This document shows, piece by piece, positions 9,388 through 43,976 of a stretch of DNA of 64,000 nt. Within the stretch, counting starts at the first letter, position 1. Every line of letters begins with the position of its first letter. Source of the DNA: an uncultured Candidatus Saccharibacteria bacterium (GTDB lineage Bacteria > Patescibacteriota > Saccharimonadia > Saccharimonadales > Saccharimonadaceae). The notes below the pieces were generated by a model that was not told where the DNA came from, made no database searches, and saw nothing but the letters and a program-made list of their open reading frames with translations. The stretch covers positions 3,501 to 67,500 of the forward strand of contig CBDFCT010000001.1 in NCBI GenBank assembly GCA_965246155.1, written 5' to 3'. Both the position numbers and the translations under genes were made by a program.

Positions 9388-12300
9388 TCAATGAACCTGT
9401 CGACCGGTATTGGGTACACCGGGTAGCTTGGGCGCACTGGGAACGCCCGGCACGGGCGGTTTGGTAGGTGTGACGGGCGGCTTGACCGGGTCAGGGTTCT
9501 TAGGTGGTTTGAGTGAGACGCAGGTAGCCGGGTAGGTGCCGTTGACGGGGTTGAGCGTACCTTTGACCTTAGGCTTTAGGACTTCTTCGTTGAGCGACTC
9601 GCCTATTCCCCCTCGACGAACGGCGATACCGCTAACCACCGTGCAGACTTCGCAGGGTTTCTCCTTAGCCACATAAGAGTAGTCAAATAGATCAGGCAAA
9701 AGGTTGTAAACTCTATCGCTGATACCGATTCTTCCGTCAAAGAGTTTAACTTCCTGTTTGCTGATCAGAGTGGTGACATCGGTTGGCTTGAGTTTGAAAT
9801 CCGGATAAGAGATACCCGGGAAGGGGTTGCCGTGGTCGTCGTAACTACGATCGGATAGGGCGTAGATATGACCGTCAGCCCCCCGGGCGACAAACGATCT
9901 TTCGCTTACACCATTGCCAATGATATCACGTAGCGACGGCAACGAACCGATCAGGTGCGGTGAAAAATCATTGATAGTGGCCGGGAGATTATTCTTACTT
10001 CGCCAGTACGACCATAGCTTACCCTGATTATCCAGAGCAAAGTTTCCCCGGATTTGTTTCACACCACCTCTTTTGGTGAGATCATCAGCCTTTGCCTCAA
10101 TAATCGTCCCATCTTTTGTCACCTGAAAAAGTTTGTTCTTAGAGGTGAGAACCCAAGCGCCTCCGTTCTTATTCTCTGAAAATACCTCTACATTATAGTC
10201 AACCGCTCTAATTGAAGTGTCTCCCAGAACAGAACTCAGGTCATACTTCTTATTACCGGTGGGATAAAGACCGTCAGCTAAGCTGGAGTCGGGCTCGCCT
10301 GAGCCGTGCAGACCACTTGATAGTTTGTAGATAGTGTTTTGACTGAAGGCAAGATTATCGTTCAGACCGATGATATGAGAGCTTGACAAGGTCTTGTCTA
10401 GGGTCGGCTTGTTGTGTCGCTCGTTTTCTTGCCAGTCGCGCTCCCAGCCCCAATAGTAGACTTTACCGGTATCGGTAATGGCGACGGCGACATTGGCGCC
10501 ATGGGTGCTCAACTTAATGATCTTATCGCCATTGAAATACTTGGTTAGTTCCTGCGGCTTATCATAGCTACAGGGAGGCCGGTCGTCGGCGTAATAAACA
10601 TAGTCCTTTCGTTTGATCTGACACTTAGTATCGACACCGACAGACCCTTGCGTGTTATTCCCCCAAGCATAAACCTTGCCACTCTGGGTCAGGGCGATGA
10701 TCGTGCCGGTGTACGAACTGTCGCTTTCCGTGTCGAGATCATTCTCCTTACCAAATGCATATACGCTTGAGTTGTTTAAATTAACTACTTGGACAACATC
10801 ATCGTCTTTATCCACCTCTGTACCGGGTGGTGGTGTTCGATTGATCTGCTCCGAGCCGGTGTTAGGTGCGCTAGGTGTTCTTGCCGTGCTGGAGGTGCCG
10901 GTGTGACCATTGCCGGATCGGGTGGGTAAATTGGCGGCGGGGATACCGGGCCCGACTTGGTTGCCATTGGCTGCGCTATTATTGTGGGTAGCTCCCTGAT
11001 TCTGGTTGGGCTGGGTCGGACCGGTCTGACCGTTATTGCCACCGGGATTAGGCTTCGGATTGGGATTGGGATTGGGATTGGGATTCGGATTAGGCTTAGG
11101 GTCAGGTTTGGGATCCGGTTTGGGTGGCGTTGCCTGTGGCACATCGACGCAGGTAGCCGGATAAGTGCCGTCGACCGGCTGAGTGGTCTCAAAGCCTACG
11201 CCACTGTGTATCCCACCGGTCGAAACCGTGGTCTCGGCGGCGCCACTGAGGGCGGTGCAGACTGTACTGGAGCTGCCTTCAAGGACATAGGAGTAATCAT
11301 AGAGCGAGGGAACTTTACCGACATAGAAGTAGGCGGGAACAGTGATATTACCGCTAAAGAGCCGAACCTTTTTCTTGTTAACTGCGGTAGTGACGTCATT
11401 CGGCTCGTACTTCTTCTTACCGTAGGTATTGCCATCCTTATCCATGAAGCCGAGGTTGATGGTGTAGAAACGACCATCTGTACTGCGTAGTACCATCTCC
11501 TTAGTACCGACGATGTCACGCATAGCCGGTATGGTGCCGATCATATTAGCCGATATGTCTTCCAGAGCAGCCGGTGTCTTGCCGTAGTAATAAGCCCACA
11601 TCTTGCCCTGGTTATCGATGGCGTAGTTAAAGCCAATGTGCTTGATACCGCCGTGTTTAGCGACGGTCTCGTTGGTCGCTTCGTAGGTCGTCCCATCGTG
11701 GTGTATCATCAGGAGCTTATTCTTAGAGGTAAGAGCCCAGGCGCCGTAGTTTTGGCTGTTGCCTGACTTGGTAGTAAAATCGGCCTCTCTAATGGTTACA
11801 TCACTCGGTAGTGAGTTGGAACTGTATGAATATGACTGGGGCGAACGCAAGCCATCCTTTGGTCTACCGTTGTTATGCATGTCGTAGACTACTTTGTCGT
11901 CCCAAGCAATGCTTGGCCAGCCGGTAGTCATACCGGTGGTATGGATACCTGACATGCTTGGGTCAAGGTGCGGAGCGTTGTGCTGCTCATCTTTCTTCCA
12001 ATCGTATCGCCAGCCCCAGTAGTATAGCTTGCCCGACTCGGTGATGGCGACAGCAACATAGCCTTCGTAGCTGGAGAGTTTGACTACTTTTTCGCCTCCG
12101 AAATACTTGGTCAGATCTTGTGGCTTGTCGTAGTAACAGGGAGGCTTCTTCTCGGCGGTAATTTTGACGCTACCCTGCTCAACAATGGTGCACTCAGCGC
12201 CGGTGCCGACTCTGCCGTACATGTTGTTGCCCCAGGCGTAGACTTTGCCGGTCTGAGTCAGAGCGACGACCGTGCCCGCATAGGCACTATCCTTCATCCG

Positions 12301-12501
12301 TTCACCTTTATAGGCGTACTCGGGGATGCCCAGATGCATGATCTGGATAACTTGGTCGTAGCTGCTGTCGTTTGGGGCGGCGATGACCGGAGCGCCGGAA
12401 CTGATTATTGCTGCTAACGATAGAATCACTACTCCCAGTGCGTATGCCAGACTACGACCAAGCTTGGTTAGTCGATAGCAGACAGCGCTTTGTTTGTTCA
12501 T
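9388..12501 (-). CDS. Large secreted protein: two tandem RCC1-like beta-propeller-type modules, each followed by a Pro-rich linker ending in PNTG
   Basis: Signal peptide. Motifs are repeated in both halves: GKVYAWGNNMYGRVG / GKVYAWGNNTQGSVG and GKLYYWGWRYDW / GKVYYWGWERDW. Linker PKPDPKPDPKPNPNPNPNPNPNPKPNP. ATG 12501 has a GGAGG SD and is preferred to 12513. Confidence 0.7.
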   Translation of the reverse strand: MNKQSAVCYRLTKLGRSLAYALGVVILSLAAIISSGAPVIAAPNDSSYDQVIQIMHLGIPEYAYKGERMKDSAYAGTVVALTQTGKVYAWGNNMYGRVGTGAECTIVEQGSVKITAEKKPPCYYDKPQDLTKYFGGEKVVKLSSYEGYVAVAITESGKLYYWGWRYDWKKDEQHNAPHLDPSMSGIHTTGMTTGWPSIAWDDKVVYDMHNNGRPKDGLRSPQSYSYSSNSLPSDVTIREADFTTKSGNSQNYGAWALTSKNKLLMIHHDGTTYEATNETVAKHGGIKHIGFNYAIDNQGKMWAYYYGKTPAALEDISANMIGTIPAMRDIVGTKEMVLRSTDGRFYTINLGFMDKDGNTYGKKKYEPNDVTTAVNKKKVRLFSGNITVPAYFYVGKVPSLYDYSYVLEGSSSTVCTALSGAAETTVSTGGIHSGVGFETTQPVDGTYPATCVDVPQATPPKPDPKPDPKPNPNPNPNPNPNPKPNPGGNNGQTGPTQPNQNQGATHNNSAANGNQVGPGIPAANLPTRSGNGHTGTSSTARTPSAPNTGSEQINRTPPPGTEVDKDDDVVQVVNLNNSSVYAFGKENDLDTESDSSYTGTIIALTQSGKVYAWGNNTQGSVGVDTKCQIKRKDYVYYADDRPPCSYDKPQELTKYFNGDKIIKLSTHGANVAVAITDTGKVYYWGWERDWQENERHNKPTLDKTLSSSHIIGLNDNLAFSQNTIYKLSSGLHGSGEPDSSLADGLYPTGNKKYDLSSVLGDTSIRAVDYNVEVFSENKNGGAWVLTSKNKLFQVTKDGTIIEAKADDLTKRGGVKQIRGNFALDNQGKLWSYWRSKNNLPATINDFSPHLIGSLPSLRDIIGNGVSERSFVARGADGHIYALSDRSYDDHGNPFPGISYPDFKLKPTDVTTLISKQEVKLFDGRIGISDRVYNLLPDLFDYSYVAKEKPCEVCTVVSGIAVRRGGIGESLNEEVLKPKVKGTLNPVNGTYPATCVSLKPPKNPDPVKPPVTPTKPPVPGVPSAPKLPGVPNTGRQVH
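11047..11127. repeat. In-frame hexanucleotide microsatellite (GGGATT)n and degenerate flanks, encoding (NP)n/(KPDP)n
   Basis: Four perfect GGGATT units (11062-11085) are flanked by CGGATT, AGGCTT, AGGGTC and similar units. Confidence 0.9.
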
Positions 12502-12634
12502 TCTTGCCTCCATATTTTTATTTTTATCAACAGTTTCTAACTATAAGCATAATATACTAGACATTTTCTCAAATAGCAAGTTCCGTGTTAATAGACAACT
12601 ATTTTCTGAAATAATGTTATATTTATTACTCACT

Positions 12635-12931
12635 TCAATCGTCGCTCAGACTTTCTTGTATGTATTCCTCTACTGTTTCGATAATAATTTGCACAGACTC
12701 GGAACAGTTTTTGAACATTATTAAATCAAATATTGCGTCTGGGTACTTACGAATAGGATCGGCCAATAACGCATGGATAAACGACTGGGTAACACCAGTT
12801 ACACCTCTAAAATCAATAATTATTGATTCATTTTTTTCTAAACTAGGCAGTATAACACTTATGCGAATATCTCTTGCTATATCTTTATTCTCGCCGTATA
12901 CACCCACCCTCTCGGTCATATGGATTATCAT
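12635..12931 (-). CDS. STAS-like small protein (DUF4325-type)
   Basis: 98 aa. IIIDFRGVTGVTQSFIHALL matches the hallmark '..ldF.gV..itsSF..el' of the STAS-like DUF4325 family. ATGA overlap with the upstream ATPase gene. Confidence 0.6.
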   Translation of the reverse strand: MIIHMTERVGVYGENKDIARDIRISVILPSLEKNESIIIDFRGVTGVTQSFIHALLADPIRKYPDAIFDLIMFKNCSESVQIIIETVEEYIQESLSDD

Positions 12932-13902
12932 AAGAACTTGAACCTTCTGTAGTTACGCTTCTTTCTAAGTCGGATAGCTTCACTGTACCTATCTCGAATT
13001 TTGCTCAGCAAATCGTTAAATCCCTCCAAATCATTGTCGAGAGTTAAGTCAATTGCCACGAGCGTGCCATCTAAAAACGGAGCATTATTTTTTTCAGAAT
13101 GACGATCATCTTCTGGATCGATAGTTAACCGAGGATTCTCCGAACGTTTATCACGCAATAATAGTTTATATATTCCCGAACCGCTATAAATCATAAAATA
13201 ATTTCTAGCAACCTTTGCAATAGACTTTACAAAAAACAACCCCGCTCCAGCATTATCCCCCGTACCACCAGTATGTGTAGTAGTGCCAGATACACCAGGC
13301 AATAATGACCATTTTATAGCATCTATATCGCTTTCTGAATGACTAGGCCAAAACTTACTTAAACTACGTCGAATTCCAATACCATTATCGCAAATACCAA
13401 TCCGAATCGTATTTGATTTTTTATAGTATTGTGCTGCTACAATCGCGCCAGTGTCGCTGGCAGCATGTTCTAGCACATTCCTGATTAGCTCGCCCACTAT
13501 ATATTTAATAGCATCTGCCTTTTCGGGCGGAAGATGTAATAAGGGAACTATATCTGATATAAACTTAGATTGCTCATTGGGATTTTTGATTATTGTTAAC
13601 GGAATGAAACGCCCAGAGGGGTCTTTTCTTTTTATAGAATAAGGCGACTTCTGTGCCGTAAATTTAAATAGCCCCATACTGTCAAGATACGACCCCGATG
13701 ATGCCGTTAGATTCGGTAGCGCCACATTGTTTTTTCCAACCTTCAGCGCCAGTGATGCTGTAAGCGCTAAAATAGCTGGGTGCACATTTATCCATTTTGG
13801 GTGTGTATCTATTGTTAATTTAGATGGGTTTGACAAATCAAGTCTACTTAAAAAACCATCAAAATACGCTAGGTAATCAGAATTTGAATAATAAATTCGC
13901 AT
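12928..13902 (-). CDS. GHKL-superfamily (HATPase_c, SpoIIAB/RsbW-like) ATP-binding protein with unknown ~130-aa N-terminal domain
   Basis: N-box ELIRNVLEHA, G1 box ICDNGIGI, G2 box GGTGDNAGAGL. AT-rich codon usage unlike the flanking genes. Confidence 0.7.
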   Translation of the reverse strand: MRIYYSNSDYLAYFDGFLSRLDLSNPSKLTIDTHPKWINVHPAILALTASLALKVGKNNVALPNLTASSGSYLDSMGLFKFTAQKSPYSIKRKDPSGRFIPLTIIKNPNEQSKFISDIVPLLHLPPEKADAIKYIVGELIRNVLEHAASDTGAIVAAQYYKKSNTIRIGICDNGIGIRRSLSKFWPSHSESDIDAIKWSLLPGVSGTTTHTGGTGDNAGAGLFFVKSIAKVARNYFMIYSGSGIYKLLLRDKRSENPRLTIDPEDDRHSEKNNAPFLDGTLVAIDLTLDNDLEGFNDLLSKIRDRYSEAIRLRKKRNYRRFKFL

Positions 13903-13908
13903 GACCTC

Positions 13909-13937
13909 ATTCTACCTGTATAGCGTGTTTTTGTCAA
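13909..13937 (-). promoter_or_regulatory. Consensus sigma70-type promoter of the GHKL/STAS cassette (leaderless)
   Basis: On the minus strand: TTGACA-N17-TAGAAT-N6-ATG(13902). Confidence 0.65.
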
Positions 13938-13955
13938 TATACGTCATACAGGGAT

Positions 13956-14114
13956 TTACTCAAAGGTTAGCAACTTATTGCGGTGATATTCGTATTGCTT
14001 GCGGCGGGCTTCAATTTCTGCTGGCAAGCCAATAGAAATATCGATGGTAAGTTTTTCAAATTTATCAAGGATAGAGACGATTTGCTTTTGCCTACTTGGC
14101 ACTATTTGTTCTCT
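13956..14114 (-). pseudogene. Type I restriction-modification specificity subunit (HsdS) C-terminal remnant
   Basis: The minus-strand frame reads ...[49 protein letters not shown], the conserved HsdS C-terminal helix. No N-terminal part or start codon is present. Confidence 0.7.
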
Positions 14115-14313
14115 GAATATCTTAGAGACACTGTCGGCGAATCTCAGGGCTCCAATCCTGTTTCAGCTTCCTAATGACATACTTAGTCAGCCATGTGTCA
14201 TTATTGCTAATCTTCTCGTCAGTCGATAGTACTCTGAACTGCTGATTAGCCTGATGGCGTCTAGCTTTAGTTAACCTATCTGCCGTGATGATTTCTCGGC
14301 TTCTATGGTTAAA
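14115..14313 (-). mobile_element. IS30-family transposase N-terminal fragment (frameshifted, truncated)
   Basis: The minus-strand frame reads ...[48 protein letters not shown]. Compare IS30 ...A.R..KR......L..L.KLVLEKLEMKWSPEQI. It then hits a stop/frameshift and abuts the HsdS remnant. Confidence 0.5.
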
Positions 14314-14357
14314 ATCTGCTAATCTATCAGCATGGGTAATAGCTAAGGTGGTGGTAA

Positions 14358-15662
<1,305 letters not shown>

Positions 15663-15681
15663 TGAGGCAAAGGAGGGGTAA

Positions 15682-16317
15682 ATGTCAGGAAAGTTAGTTT
15701 TGATTCGTCACGGTGAGAGTGAGTGGAACTTGCAGGGTCGTTGGACCGGCTGGACGGATGTGGGTATCACGCCGAAGGGGGCGGCTGATGCTCGCAAGAT
15801 GGGTGAGCTACTGCAGAGCATTCATTTTAATGAGGCATATACTAGCCGGCTCAAGCGGACAGTGGAAACATTTCAAAACGTTGTCGCTACGCAGGGGCAG
15901 CCCGAACTACCTTACAAGCAAGTTGAAGCCCTCAATGAGCGTGATTATGGCGACTATACCGGGCTAAATAAATGGGAGGTGAAAGCTAAAGTTGGCGATG
16001 ATAAGTTTAACGCCATCAGACGCAATTATGATGAGCCGATCCCCGGGGGCGAGACCTTGCACATGGTTTACGACAGGGTTTTGCCATGGTACCGAGCTGA
16101 GCTATTGCCCAAGCTACTTAGGGGCGAGAACGTTATGCTGGTAGCGCATGGCAATTCGATCAGAGCGCTGGTGAAATACATTGAGAACATTAGCGACACT
16201 GACATCGCTAAGTTCGAAATGATCTTTGGCACAGTCCTGATTTACACCGTCGATGAGGCTGGTCGAATGGTAGATCGTCAGACGTTGAAGGCTGAGATTA
16301 CTCAGACCAAAGCTTAG
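15682..16317 (+). CDS. gpmA: 2,3-bisphosphoglycerate-dependent phosphoglycerate mutase
   Basis: LVLIRHGESEWN catalytic His motif and a downstream AHGNSIRAL motif. Confidence 0.9.
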   Translation: MSGKLVLIRHGESEWNLQGRWTGWTDVGITPKGAADARKMGELLQSIHFNEAYTSRLKRTVETFQNVVATQGQPELPYKQVEALNERDYGDYTGLNKWEVKAKVGDDKFNAIRRNYDEPIPGGETLHMVYDRVLPWYRAELLPKLLRGENVMLVAHGNSIRALVKYIENISDTDIAKFEMIFGTVLIYTVDEAGRMVDRQTLKAEITQTKA

Positions 16318-42562: not shown

Positions 42563-42640
42563 TGGTACACCCGGAGGGATTCGAACCCACGACCTTTGGT
42601 ACCGGAAACCAACGCTCTAATCCGGCTGAGCTACGGGTGC
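42563..42640 (-). tRNA. tRNA-Arg (anticodon CCG)
   Basis: Hand-folded: anticodon stem TTGGT/ACCAA, loop TTCCGGT, T-arm GTGGG-TTCGAAT-CCCTC, encoded CCA, G1-U72 wobble. Confidence 0.85.
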
Positions 42641-42758: not shown

Positions 42759-43976
42759 CTATTGATTGAGCAGCCAGTCTACTACATTAACCTTTTTAAT
42801 TCCGTCAAACTGCTCAGGCACCAGATCCATCGTCAGTAAGAACTTAGGGTAGTTGTCTCTGATCTTATAGAATGGTGCCAGCTCTCGGGCGAGGGTCTTG
42901 GGTTGGTCGTTGACTTGATATGACACTTGGTAATAGACTCGTTCGCCACCGGCCATTTGAACCATGAAGTCAACCTCGCAGTCTTCGTTTTTGCCGATAA
43001 AGATCTCTCCTTCATTGCGCCTAAGAAGCTCGAGAAAAACGACATTTTCTAGGCGATGCCCGACGTCAGACCCGGGAGTACTACCGAGTAGAATGTTTCT
43101 AAGACCGAGATCGACCACGTAATATTTGTCGTTTGTGGTCAGCAGCCTTCTTCCCTTAATATCGTAGCGGCTAACGGGATAGACAAGGTATGATTTAGTC
43201 AAATAGTCCAAATAATTCTTGATGGTACCATGGAAAATATTATCGTTGTTTAGCTTGAAGAAATTACTGATATTTCGTGCCGACAATGGACTACCGATGG
43301 AGTCGAAGACAAATTTGACCACTCGGTCAAAATCAATCCTACCTCTGATCTGATAACGTTCGGCTATATCTTTATTGACAACGGTATCGTAGATATTTCT
43401 GAGGTAGTTATTAGCCAGCTTATCATCAATTTTTGCCAGATTGATAGCTTCCGGAAAAGAGCTACTTGTCAGGTATTTCTCGAAGAGGCGGTCGTTGTTA
43501 TGCTCCTCGGGAAATACCTGGACGAATTCACTAAAAGAAAATGGCAAGACGTGAATAGATATATAACGACCGGTTAGTAAGGTTGATAGCTCGCCGGAGA
43601 GTAAAAAAGCGTTACTGCCAGTGATGTAGAGATCTACATTGGGCTTAACAAACAGAGAATCGGCTACTTCTTCAAACTGTGCGACCTTCTGAACCTCATC
43701 CAGGAAGATGTAGTTCATTTTGTCCGGTACAAGTTTTTGCTCGATACGATGGTGTAATTTACGCCAATCTCTCAGCTCGACGTTCTTCTCTTCTTCAAAG
43801 TTAAATGATTGGATTTGACTATCGGCAATGCCCTGCTCTCTGAGCGTATCTTGAAATAGTCCGAGCAGGGTTGACTTGCCACTTCGGCGAACACCGGTAA
43901 CAACCTTGATGACATTCTGATCTTTAGAGAGCGCTAGTTGGTCTAAGTATTGCTGACGAATAATTTTCGCATTCAT
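42759..43976 (-). CDS. AAA+ ATPase with C-terminal DUF4143-type (restriction-endonuclease-like) domain
   Basis: Walker A GVRRSGKST, Walker B YIFLDEVQ, C-terminal ...CEVDFMVQ...VYYQVSY. Visibly more AT-rich than its neighbours. Confidence 0.7.
   Translation of the reverse strand: MNAKIIRQQYLDQLALSKDQNVIKVVTGVRRSGKSTLLGLFQDTLREQGIADSQIQSFNFEEEKNVELRDWRKLHHRIEQKLVPDKMNYIFLDEVQKVAQFEEVADSLFVKPNVDLYITGSNAFLLSGELSTLLTGRYISIHVLPFSFSEFVQVFPEEHNNDRLFEKYLTSSSFPEAINLAKIDDKLANNYLRNIYDTVVNKDIAERYQIRGRIDFDRVVKFVFDSIGSPLSARNISNFFKLNNDNIFHGTIKNYLDYLTKSYLVYPVSRYDIKGRRLLTTNDKYYVVDLGLRNILLGSTPGSDVGHRLENVVFLELLRRNEGEIFIGKNEDCEVDFMVQMAGGERVYYQVSYQVNDQPKTLARELAPFYKIRDNYPKFLLTMDLVPEQFDGIKKVNVVDWLLNQ

Follow-up and report, generated by a model that had tools for sequence, protein, structure and literature searches.

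A VapK-like kinase/STAS gene pair in an AT-rich islet of an oral Saccharibacterium: a probable surviving core of a type I restriction-modification operon

What is a two-gene cassette with the marks of a protein kinase and its STAS-domain partner doing in an AT-rich islet of a reduced bacterial genome, beside the debris of a restriction-modification (R-M) system? The question is raised by a stretch of 64,000 nucleotides (contig CBDFCT010000001.1, positions 3,501 to 67,500; hereafter the window) from an oral Candidatus Saccharibacteria (TM7) genome, in which the pair, here called K and S, lies between a gene for an RCC1-like protein and obg. The same locus is present in dozens of species-level metagenome-assembled genomes (MAGs) at 94-100% identity. 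We consider it moderately probable that four things hold jointly: the islet is the core of a decayed R-M operon, the pair is a switch of the VapK/CapK type, its leaderless promoter is gated by a palindrome, and in intact loci it tunes hsdR. The features on which this reading is built are the following, in window positions.

12501 to 14000, no strand: AT-rich islet, delimited by the composition profile, G+C content (GC) 0.34-0.40
12928 to 13902, minus strand: gene K, 324 aa, kinase-type, from its open reading frame (ORF), Pfam, structural model and VapK alignment
12635 to 12931, minus strand: gene S, 98 aa, single-domain STAS-like protein (DUF4325), acidic, putative phospho-acceptor
13909 to 13937, minus strand: sigma-70-type promoter, with -35 TTGACA at 13937-13932, a 17-nt spacer and -10 TAGAAT at 13914-13909
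13915 to 13952: 38-bp palindrome around the -35, candidate operator; distal arm CCTGTATGACG at 13952-13942, proximal arm CGCTATACAGG at 13925-13915, occupying the -35/-10 spacer
13956 to 14102, minus strand: hsdS 3' remnant of 48 codons, encoding the C-terminal 48 residues of a type I specificity subunit
12598 to 12633, minus strand: probable hsdR 5' stub VSNKYNIISENS, ~12 codons, starting 2 nt after the S stop

The relevant characterised systems are CapK/CapS and VapKSC (Chambers et al., EMBO J 2026; PMC13373217). CapK is a kinase of helix-turn-helix (HTH), STAS and GHKL domains that single-stranded DNA (ssDNA) activates via W68 and that phosphorylates Ser54 of CapS, a repressor composed of a STAS domain and a winged HTH (wHTH), thereby de-repressing adjacent immune operons; CapS binds palindromes over its own promoter and over a downstream promoter, and ~20% of capKS loci adjoin R-M genes (PMC13373217). 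VapK (STAS-GHKL) phosphorylates VapS, a STAS domain with a C-terminal helix, at Ser48 and so frees the PIN toxin VapC, and VapKSC is an anti-phage system of the toxin-antitoxin (TA) type (PMC13373217).

K consists of an N-terminal STAS-like domain (residues ~1-122), a GHKL domain of the Bergerat fold (~123-250) and a C-terminal beta/helix extension that ends in a basic helix (292-324). It matches Pfam HATPase_c_2 (E 9.5e-7, 29.3 bits, cut-off 27.4) and, likewise above the gathering score, HATPase_c, and the Bergerat boxes pointed out in an earlier, sequence-only reading of this DNA proved to be invariant in 31 homologues: E138 and N142 in the N box, D172-x-G174-x-G176 in G1 and G219-A-G221-L in G2. 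In the N-domain, W37, H41, P42, S69 and Y72 are invariant across these 31 homologues, and in the homologue alignment so are R303, R313, K315 and F323 of the basic helix. The AlphaFold2 (AF2) model of K (predicted TM-score, pTM, 0.84) has the Bergerat fold, with alternating beta and alpha secondary structure in residues 1-122; Foldseek aligned it with Topo VI-B, GyrB, SpoIIAB and CheA, SpoIIAB being the best-covered structural match (TM-score, TMt, 0.63-0.65).

The class of kinase is indicated by comparison with VapK, whose sequence (residues 1-286) was taken from the AlphaFold3 file of PMC13373217. The K-family profile aligns with VapK over 249 columns (K 1-249 with VapK 4-267; hhalign 95.6%, E 1.2e-8), a span that takes in the N-domain and sets the invariant W37 opposite VapK F54 within a high-confidence stretch; over the kinase core, K and VapK are 30% identical by BLASTP (E 2e-12). 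Since a direct profile-profile comparison of the K N-domain with DUF4325 gave no relationship, the STAS assignment of that domain rests on the VapK alignment and on secondary structure. The K profile matched no PDB sequence, and single-sequence PDB searches with K and with S were uninformative. By homology, K is a VapK/CapK-type STAS-GHKL kinase. The sequence-only reading had described it as a SpoIIAB/RsbW-like kinase with an unassigned N-domain, which was right as to kinase type and too coarse as to class.

S matches DUF4325 in Pfam (E 2.5e-12, 46.7 bits, cut-off 23), as had been proposed for the second gene, and DUF4325 is the sole domain in all 120 homologues listed (71-133 aa, mostly 91-104). 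In the whole PDB the best match of the S-family profile is VapS 9Z7O (E 0.002, near full length), and the VapS sequence is itself a strong member of DUF4325 (E 1e-17). On these profiles S is a VapS homologue, and the suspected kinase/STAS pair of the switch type is borne out by homology of both members to VapK and VapS. Invariant positions of S are E14, K16, D17, R23, F41, T48, Q49, S50, F51, H53 and A54, the T48-Q49-S50 run being unchanged in 47 sequences. In the AF2 model (predicted local distance difference test, pLDDT, 95; STAS proteins as top structural matches; helix 49-62) this run is placed at the N-terminal end of helix alpha2, which in STAS proteins is the canonical phospho-site. The C-terminal helix is conserved as well, with Y90 invariant.

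K and S travel as one unit. The two ORFs, of 324 and 98 aa, overlap by an ATGA stop/start at 12928-12931, the tight operon of the sequence-only reading, and a DUF4325 gene directly follows K in all 85 loci that reach far enough. Distant relatives of ~420-450 aa are single-chain fusions of K with DUF4325, which, as Rosetta-stone evidence, indicates that K and S work together. K, VapK and these fusions also match an N-terminal segment (~39-273) of the PADLOC DrmA model PDLC02567, 1750 positions long (E 8e-13 to 4e-4), and therefore some DISARM DrmA helicases seem to carry a K-like GHKL module.

How, then, would the pair be expressed? TTGACA-N17-TAGAAT is the best promoter match in the region, agrees with the consensus at 11/12 positions and was already named in the sequence-only reading; because the ATG of K (13902) lies 6 nt past the -10, the mRNA is predicted to be leaderless. 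A common architecture upstream of K is found in 44/44 non-redundant loci (viral contigs included) from many phyla. In the 36 non-redundant loci used for promoter geometry, the -35 is TTGACA in 25, the spacer is 17-18 nt and the -10 is TAnAAT or TAAACT, abutting the proximal arm of the palindrome; from the -10 to the ATG, 24 loci have a gap of 6 nt and another 8 a gap of 7 nt (32/36 in all, in agreement with the leaderless start that had been claimed), and 33 loci have no Shine-Dalgarno sequence.

The palindrome, which like the probable hsdR stub is an addition of the present analysis, consists across loci of an arm of 11-14 nt (consensus CCTGTAGAGCG), ~16 nt that include the -35, and the reverse-complement arm. 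The arms covary: compensatory double changes are seen in 9/15 pairs (56 cells), and 86% of cells pair as against at most 49% in slid registers, a value reached in none of 500 shuffles. The 11+16+11 geometry is constant even in additional copies that have no promoter, and copies of the palindrome occur solely beside the cassette; upstream, some loci have a second tandem unit or a third arm. Both L003 (9860-9990 and 11280-11340) and L066 (11260-11300) have extra units without a -35 hexamer, situated upstream of the promoter unit and in the gap from S to the following gene, which is rplC in L003 and begins MRLLEYEAKNLL in L066; the flanking units of L003 have a common extended direct repeat, ACAGGGGYGGGTTTTYCTGTCGGCCGTGA. 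By analogy, the unit between S and the next gene recalls the two sites of CapS. A leaderless promoter wrapped in a palindrome and strictly conserved across phyla offers a clean regulatory element for experiments.

The connection to restriction is visible on both sides of the pair. Upstream, the hsdS remnant matches PADLOC Specificity_I (E 2e-24) and Pfam Methylase_S (E 4e-4) and is 58-60% identical to the HsdS C-termini of the intact locus L001, so that this flank of the sequence-only reading holds. Downstream, VSNKYNIISENS resembles the conserved N-terminal motif of HsdR (NKYNLVSQN, YNMVAEN) at the place where intact loci start hsdR, and has a 12-nt exact match to the hsdR start of L052, which is suggestive of an hsdR 5' remnant at 12598-12633. 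Of hsd genes the window retains the 48 codons of hsdS and possibly 12 of hsdR, as opposed to the full hsdR, hsdM and hsdS set by which a type I system is called.

Elsewhere the order hsdM-(rhuM)-hsdS-[K-S]-hsdR is intact in about seven independent lineages, so that the R-M link suggested earlier is substantiated by recurrence of hsdS, pair and hsdR in succession (L001, L046, L050, L052, L054, L055, L057). The hosts are a Saccharibacteria metagenome contig and MAGs of Roizmanbacteria, Moraniibacteriota, Magasanikbacteria, a second Saccharibacterium, Pseudomonadota and Bacillota. HsdR of these loci is EcoR124-like, and the hsdR start overlaps the S stop by 4-17 nt. In L001 (5437-9882), a RhuM-family gene stands between hsdM and hsdS, and there are two consecutive specificity genes, one of 383 aa and the other of 198 aa. 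In 34 non-redundant loci with 125 neighbours in all, recurrence of a family is limited to HsdS and HsdR; Fic occurs three times and the remainder are assorted housekeeping genes. PIN is absent from these neighbour families, and the next gene of the window after the pair is the RCC1-like one. Nor is any sigma factor recurrent among the 125 neighbours or present in the window ORFs flanking the pair (8-19 kb), as the sequence-only reading had noted; rpoD lies a few kb upstream of K-S in both L005 and L093, where it was considered as a sigma partner and rejected, as it belongs to a dnaG-rpoD operon.

Genes other than hsdR are also translationally coupled to S, namely holA and the variable-protein gene of a diversity-generating retroelement (DGR; Lcl_C, followed by a reverse transcriptase and Avd). 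In L097 (7001-11270; JGI 3300025009 contig), S overlaps the Lcl_C-type gene by 11 nt and a reverse transcriptase and bAvd come after it, a DGR whose target gene lies behind the K-S promoter; L098 is arranged likewise.

The K family is large and patchily distributed. It matched >1,600 clusters in a set of 5.8 billion proteins, nearly all ~322 aa long, and relatives occur in 432/185,579 species genomes; homologues 54-79% identical to K are found in Saccharibacteria, many other phyla of the candidate phyla radiation (CPR), Nanoarchaeota, Pseudomonadota and Bacillota. In the window, GC is 0.338, 0.398 and 0.376 in the three 500-nt windows over 12501-14000 against a background of ~0.52, which puts numbers to the drop between the RCC1-like gene and obg that had been judged by eye; the K-S pair has 0.382 and the remainder of the window 0.515. 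The cassette is AT-richer than its flanks in 24/28 hosts, its GC held at 0.36-0.50 regardless of host GC. Together with the patchy spread across phyla, this composition fits horizontal movement, and the acquisition proposed earlier is upheld to that extent. The vehicle is not typically a phage or plasmid, given that plasmid records contained no homologue, phage records gave three weak matches, and the pair is present in 3 of 2.9 million viral contigs. Bacteroides phage BF1-TP2 (PQ571263.1, L092 4836-6079) has a distant 'ATP-binding protein' gene overlapping a 'DUF4325 domain-containing protein' gene, and so carries a K/S-like pair.

In the oral lineages the orphan pair is maintained by purifying selection. 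Both ORFs are intact in all 33 Saccharibacteria genomes that have the islet at the RCC1-like/obg site, and across these sister genomes the ratio of nonsynonymous to synonymous divergence (dN/dS) is 0.11 for K and 0.20 for S. Its retention in reduced epibiont genomes implies that the module is valuable without R-M. Synonymous divergence (dS) from the window is 0.070 for K and 0.042 for S, as against 0.205 for obg and 0.255 for gpmA in the same 26 genomes (L009-L044), that is, 3-5 times below these adjacent genes (14367-16317). Such low values point to a sweep of the islet through oral TM7 lineages or to its recent spread by recombination, or else to unusual synonymous constraint.

As a plausible mechanism, the islet would be what survives of a horizontally acquired EcoR124-like type I operon, hsdM-hsdS-[K-S]-hsdR, of which the last 48 hsdS codons, an internal promoter, K-S and perhaps the first dozen hsdR codons would remain. 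K would join a STAS-like sensor domain to a GHKL kinase domain, and S would be a single-domain STAS protein of the VapS type. By analogy with the characterised kinases, ssDNA bound between the STAS-like and GHKL domains of K may switch K on, with W37 at the position of the VapK F54/CapK W68 contact in the groove of these two domains; K may then phosphorylate S where helix alpha2 starts, on one of the invariant residues Thr48 and Ser50, and phosphorylation may alter the binding partners of S (partner switching). K-S would be transcribed leaderless from the near-consensus promoter inside the 38-bp palindrome, which is most likely an operator for autoregulation. As hsdR is translationally coupled to S and has a common promoter with it in intact loci, the module would tune the restriction subunit there, that is, the supply or activity of HsdR upon DNA damage or infection. 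A switch of this kind would thereby stand directly upstream of a type I hsdR and be translationally coupled to it. Control of type I restriction under DNA damage, whether by throttling or by boosting, is understood only in part, above all beyond E. coli, and a dedicated sensor within the hsdR transcription unit would open that question to tests. In the present genome hsdR would have been lost and the orphan K-S kept by purifying selection. The co-directional gene for the RCC1-like surface protein, 121 nt downstream, is a speculative target of the orphan pair.

A wider version of this proposal, which we think improbable as a whole, holds that K-S is a portable controller cassette that senses DNA damage or ssDNA and brings its own palindrome-gated leaderless promoter; it would act as an HsdR switch, for restriction alleviation or restriction boost, with the operator read by a K dimer via the basic C-terminal helix or by a K-S complex, and the orphan would have been co-opted for the hypervariable RCC1-like gene. 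Given that S has no DNA-binding domain, the operator would need one of these new modes of reading, and if the proposal is true the kinase itself would be the repressor.

Several observations weigh against the reading of the islet as an R-M-derived VapK/CapK-type switch. The identity of K to VapK is only 22-30%. The T48-Q49-S50 run of S straddles VapS Ser48, which falls opposite Q49, so that the hhalign register does not separate T48 from S50. The transcription start is a prediction from sequence, and the hsdR stub is only ~12 codons long. Pfam and NCBIfam scans of K and S, including 120 S homologues, show no recognisable DNA-binding domain, and S is acidic; for the putative operator, the invariant basic C-terminal helix of K is the sole candidate binder. 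Finally, ~27/34 loci have no R-M neighbour, so R-M control cannot be the general function of K-S.

Three other explanations compete with this reading in whole or in part. One would make the pair a self-contained TA or abortive-infection module, with K as a kinase toxin and S as its pseudo-substrate antitoxin, or with S sequestering an unlinked effector in the manner of VapS and VapC; addiction would then explain why K-S persisted after the R-M system decayed. The closest characterised relative, VapKSC, is of this kind, the operon is compact, mobile, AT-rich and looks autoregulated, with a promoter palindrome as in type II TA loci, it is under purifying selection in tiny genomes, and the C-terminal helix of S with its invariant Y90 parallels the toxin-blocking C-terminus of VapS. 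However, a PIN or other toxin gene adjoins the pair in 0/34 loci, no GHKL Ser/Thr kinase is known to act as a toxin, and frequent translational coupling to genes as varied as hsdR, a DGR target and holA is more like a controller than a closed TA pair, so that we regard this explanation as unlikely. The classical SpoIIAB/SpoIIAA arrangement, in which K would be an anti-sigma factor holding a remotely encoded sigma and S the anti-anti-sigma factor, can draw on HATPase_c_2 as best Pfam family, on the SpoIIAB structural match and on the STAS fold of S. Its weakness is that K, with its additional N-domain and C-terminal extension, aligns end-to-end with VapK and not with anti-sigma factors: by the criterion of a single domain, ~140-160 aa and a score above the equivalog cut-off, K differs from SpoIIAB/RsbW on every count, NCBIfam giving 17.2 bits for SpoIIAB TIGR01925 (cut-off 135) and 13.3 bits for RsbW (cut-off 145). 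A sigma factor is never a recurrent neighbour, and the family is found in CPR bacteria and Nanoarchaeota, which have very few alternative sigma factors. We judge this explanation very improbable.

The third alternative concerns the palindrome, which might be a nucleic-acid structure (a cruciform, or an RNA hairpin that terminates or attenuates read-through transcripts from hsdS) or might mark where a mobile cassette ends. Strong covariation between the arms is what a structure would produce, third arms or tandem units in many loci could form alternative hairpins, L003 and L066 have an extra unit just downstream of S, and neither protein shows a DNA-binding domain. Yet a homodimeric binder also predicts concerted change of both arms, the fixed 16-nt spacing in promoter-less copies is expected of a protein footprint, and the proximal arm, lying between -35 and -10, is outside the predicted leaderless transcript. 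Arm mismatches are without sense-strand wobble bias (15 G-T versus 24 A-C), for which reason the sense-RNA hairpin was rejected, and downstream units in only ~3/34 loci led us to reject the palindrome as a general cassette boundary. We hold this alternative to be quite doubtful and, in preference to an RNA hairpin, favour a duplex operator to which a symmetric protein would bind; the observations lend no support to a mobile-element end either.

The surroundings of the islet are variable in their own right. The RCC1-like neighbour named in the sequence-only reading is indeed RCC1-like, and the remaining flank is a non-coding spacer.

9388 to 12513, minus strand: gene for an RCC1-like protein of 1041 aa, co-directional with K-S, beginning 121 nt past S
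14103 to 14330: variable non-coding spacer between the hsdS remnant and obg, indel-rich in sister genomes

The RCC1-like protein has a signal- or transmembrane-like N-terminus and proline-rich, low-complexity linkers. Its C-terminal part (9388-10587) falls into two deeply divergent allele classes in sister genomes, with dS at most 0.19 in 8 genomes and ~1.3-1.7 in 12. Compared across related genomes, the spacer is the most variable and most indel-prone stretch of the locus. The IS30-like fragment earlier placed at 14103-14330 is rejected: the 80-codon open frame there has no NCBIfam IS30 match and no tblastn match in plasmid records. In L036 (11663-12278) and L039 (7136-7684), the spacer matching window positions 14085-14290 is interrupted by an insertion of ~400 nt with a 9-nt overlap at 14143-14151, and in L036 it has additionally moved downstream of the K-S pair and is inverted, which may reflect a rearrangement hotspot or a small mobile element. 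Elsewhere in the window, a second AT-rich patch (GC 0.42) carries a 405-aa AAA_14 + DUF4143 ATPase gene (42759-43976, minus strand) that adjoins a tRNA-Arg (42563-42640), and may be another acquired islet.

How new is the pair? The sequence-only reading had it without described function, which does not hold for the superfamily, since CapKS and VapKSC are already characterised; the two-gene subfamily without VapC and without HTH domains is not covered in PMC13373217. The datasets of that paper make no mention of DUF4325, hsdR or CPR hosts, and in the literature on DUF4325, on hsd genes with STAS proteins and on Saccharibacteria defence we found no account of such an arrangement.

Some likenesses lie outside that superfamily. 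With SpoIIAB/SpoIIAA and RsbW/RsbV the pair has in common a GHKL Ser kinase of the HATPase_c_2 type and a STAS protein with its phospho-site at the alpha2 N-terminus; unlike them, K is without a sigma partner, more than twice the size and equipped with a sensor domain, and its equivalog scores are far under threshold. In type II R-M systems, C-proteins act at a palindromic operator over the promoter, and a leaderless transcript runs into the restriction gene. K-S likewise has a palindrome over its promoter and a predicted leaderless transcript leading into hsdR, whereas it lacks an HTH C protein, belongs to a type I system and would take its input from a kinase/STAS switch. Accessory genes of the PrrC/Rlo type sit in type I R-M loci and are plausibly coupled to the state of the R-M complex. 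K-S resembles them as an accessory module between hsd genes, plausibly with the same coupling, but the protein families are unrelated, and K-S precedes hsdR, is co-translated with it and thrives without R-M too.

The closer comparison is with CapKS and VapKSC. Like CapKS, the pair has kinase/STAS-substrate logic, a palindrome over the promoter and R-M linkage in ~20% of loci. Unlike CapKS, K has no N-terminal HTH, and S is without the wHTH to which CapS owes its repressor function; the two genes overlap and are served by a single promoter, which lies upstream of K; the palindrome spans 38 bp and its covarying arms are 11 nt long, where CapS sites are TTAA half-sites; and the pair is embedded in the type I operon, with hsdS on one side and hsdR on the other, and not downstream of it. 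As read from DNA, the genes downstream of K-S are often co-directional or coupled, and the palindrome over the -35 and the spacer shows both conservation and covariation. With VapKSC the likeness extends to the STAS-like plus GHKL architecture of the kinase, the aligned aromatic of the ssDNA contact (W37/F54), a small DUF4325 protein with a Ser/Thr at the alpha2 N-terminus and a C-terminal helix, and the gene order, kinase first and STAS protein next. In contrast, K-S loci have no VapC or other toxin gene, the third coupled gene, where present, being hsdR, a DGR target gene or holA; K has an additional conserved basic C-terminal helix, and a leaderless palindromic promoter is undescribed for VapKSC. 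With neither PIN toxin nor HTH/wHTH, K-S can be placed beside these two as a third and minimal version of the K/S kinase-substrate module, which would extend the ssDNA-activated kinase/STAS switch to an architecture with neither toxin nor DNA-binding domain that is widespread in CPR bacteria.

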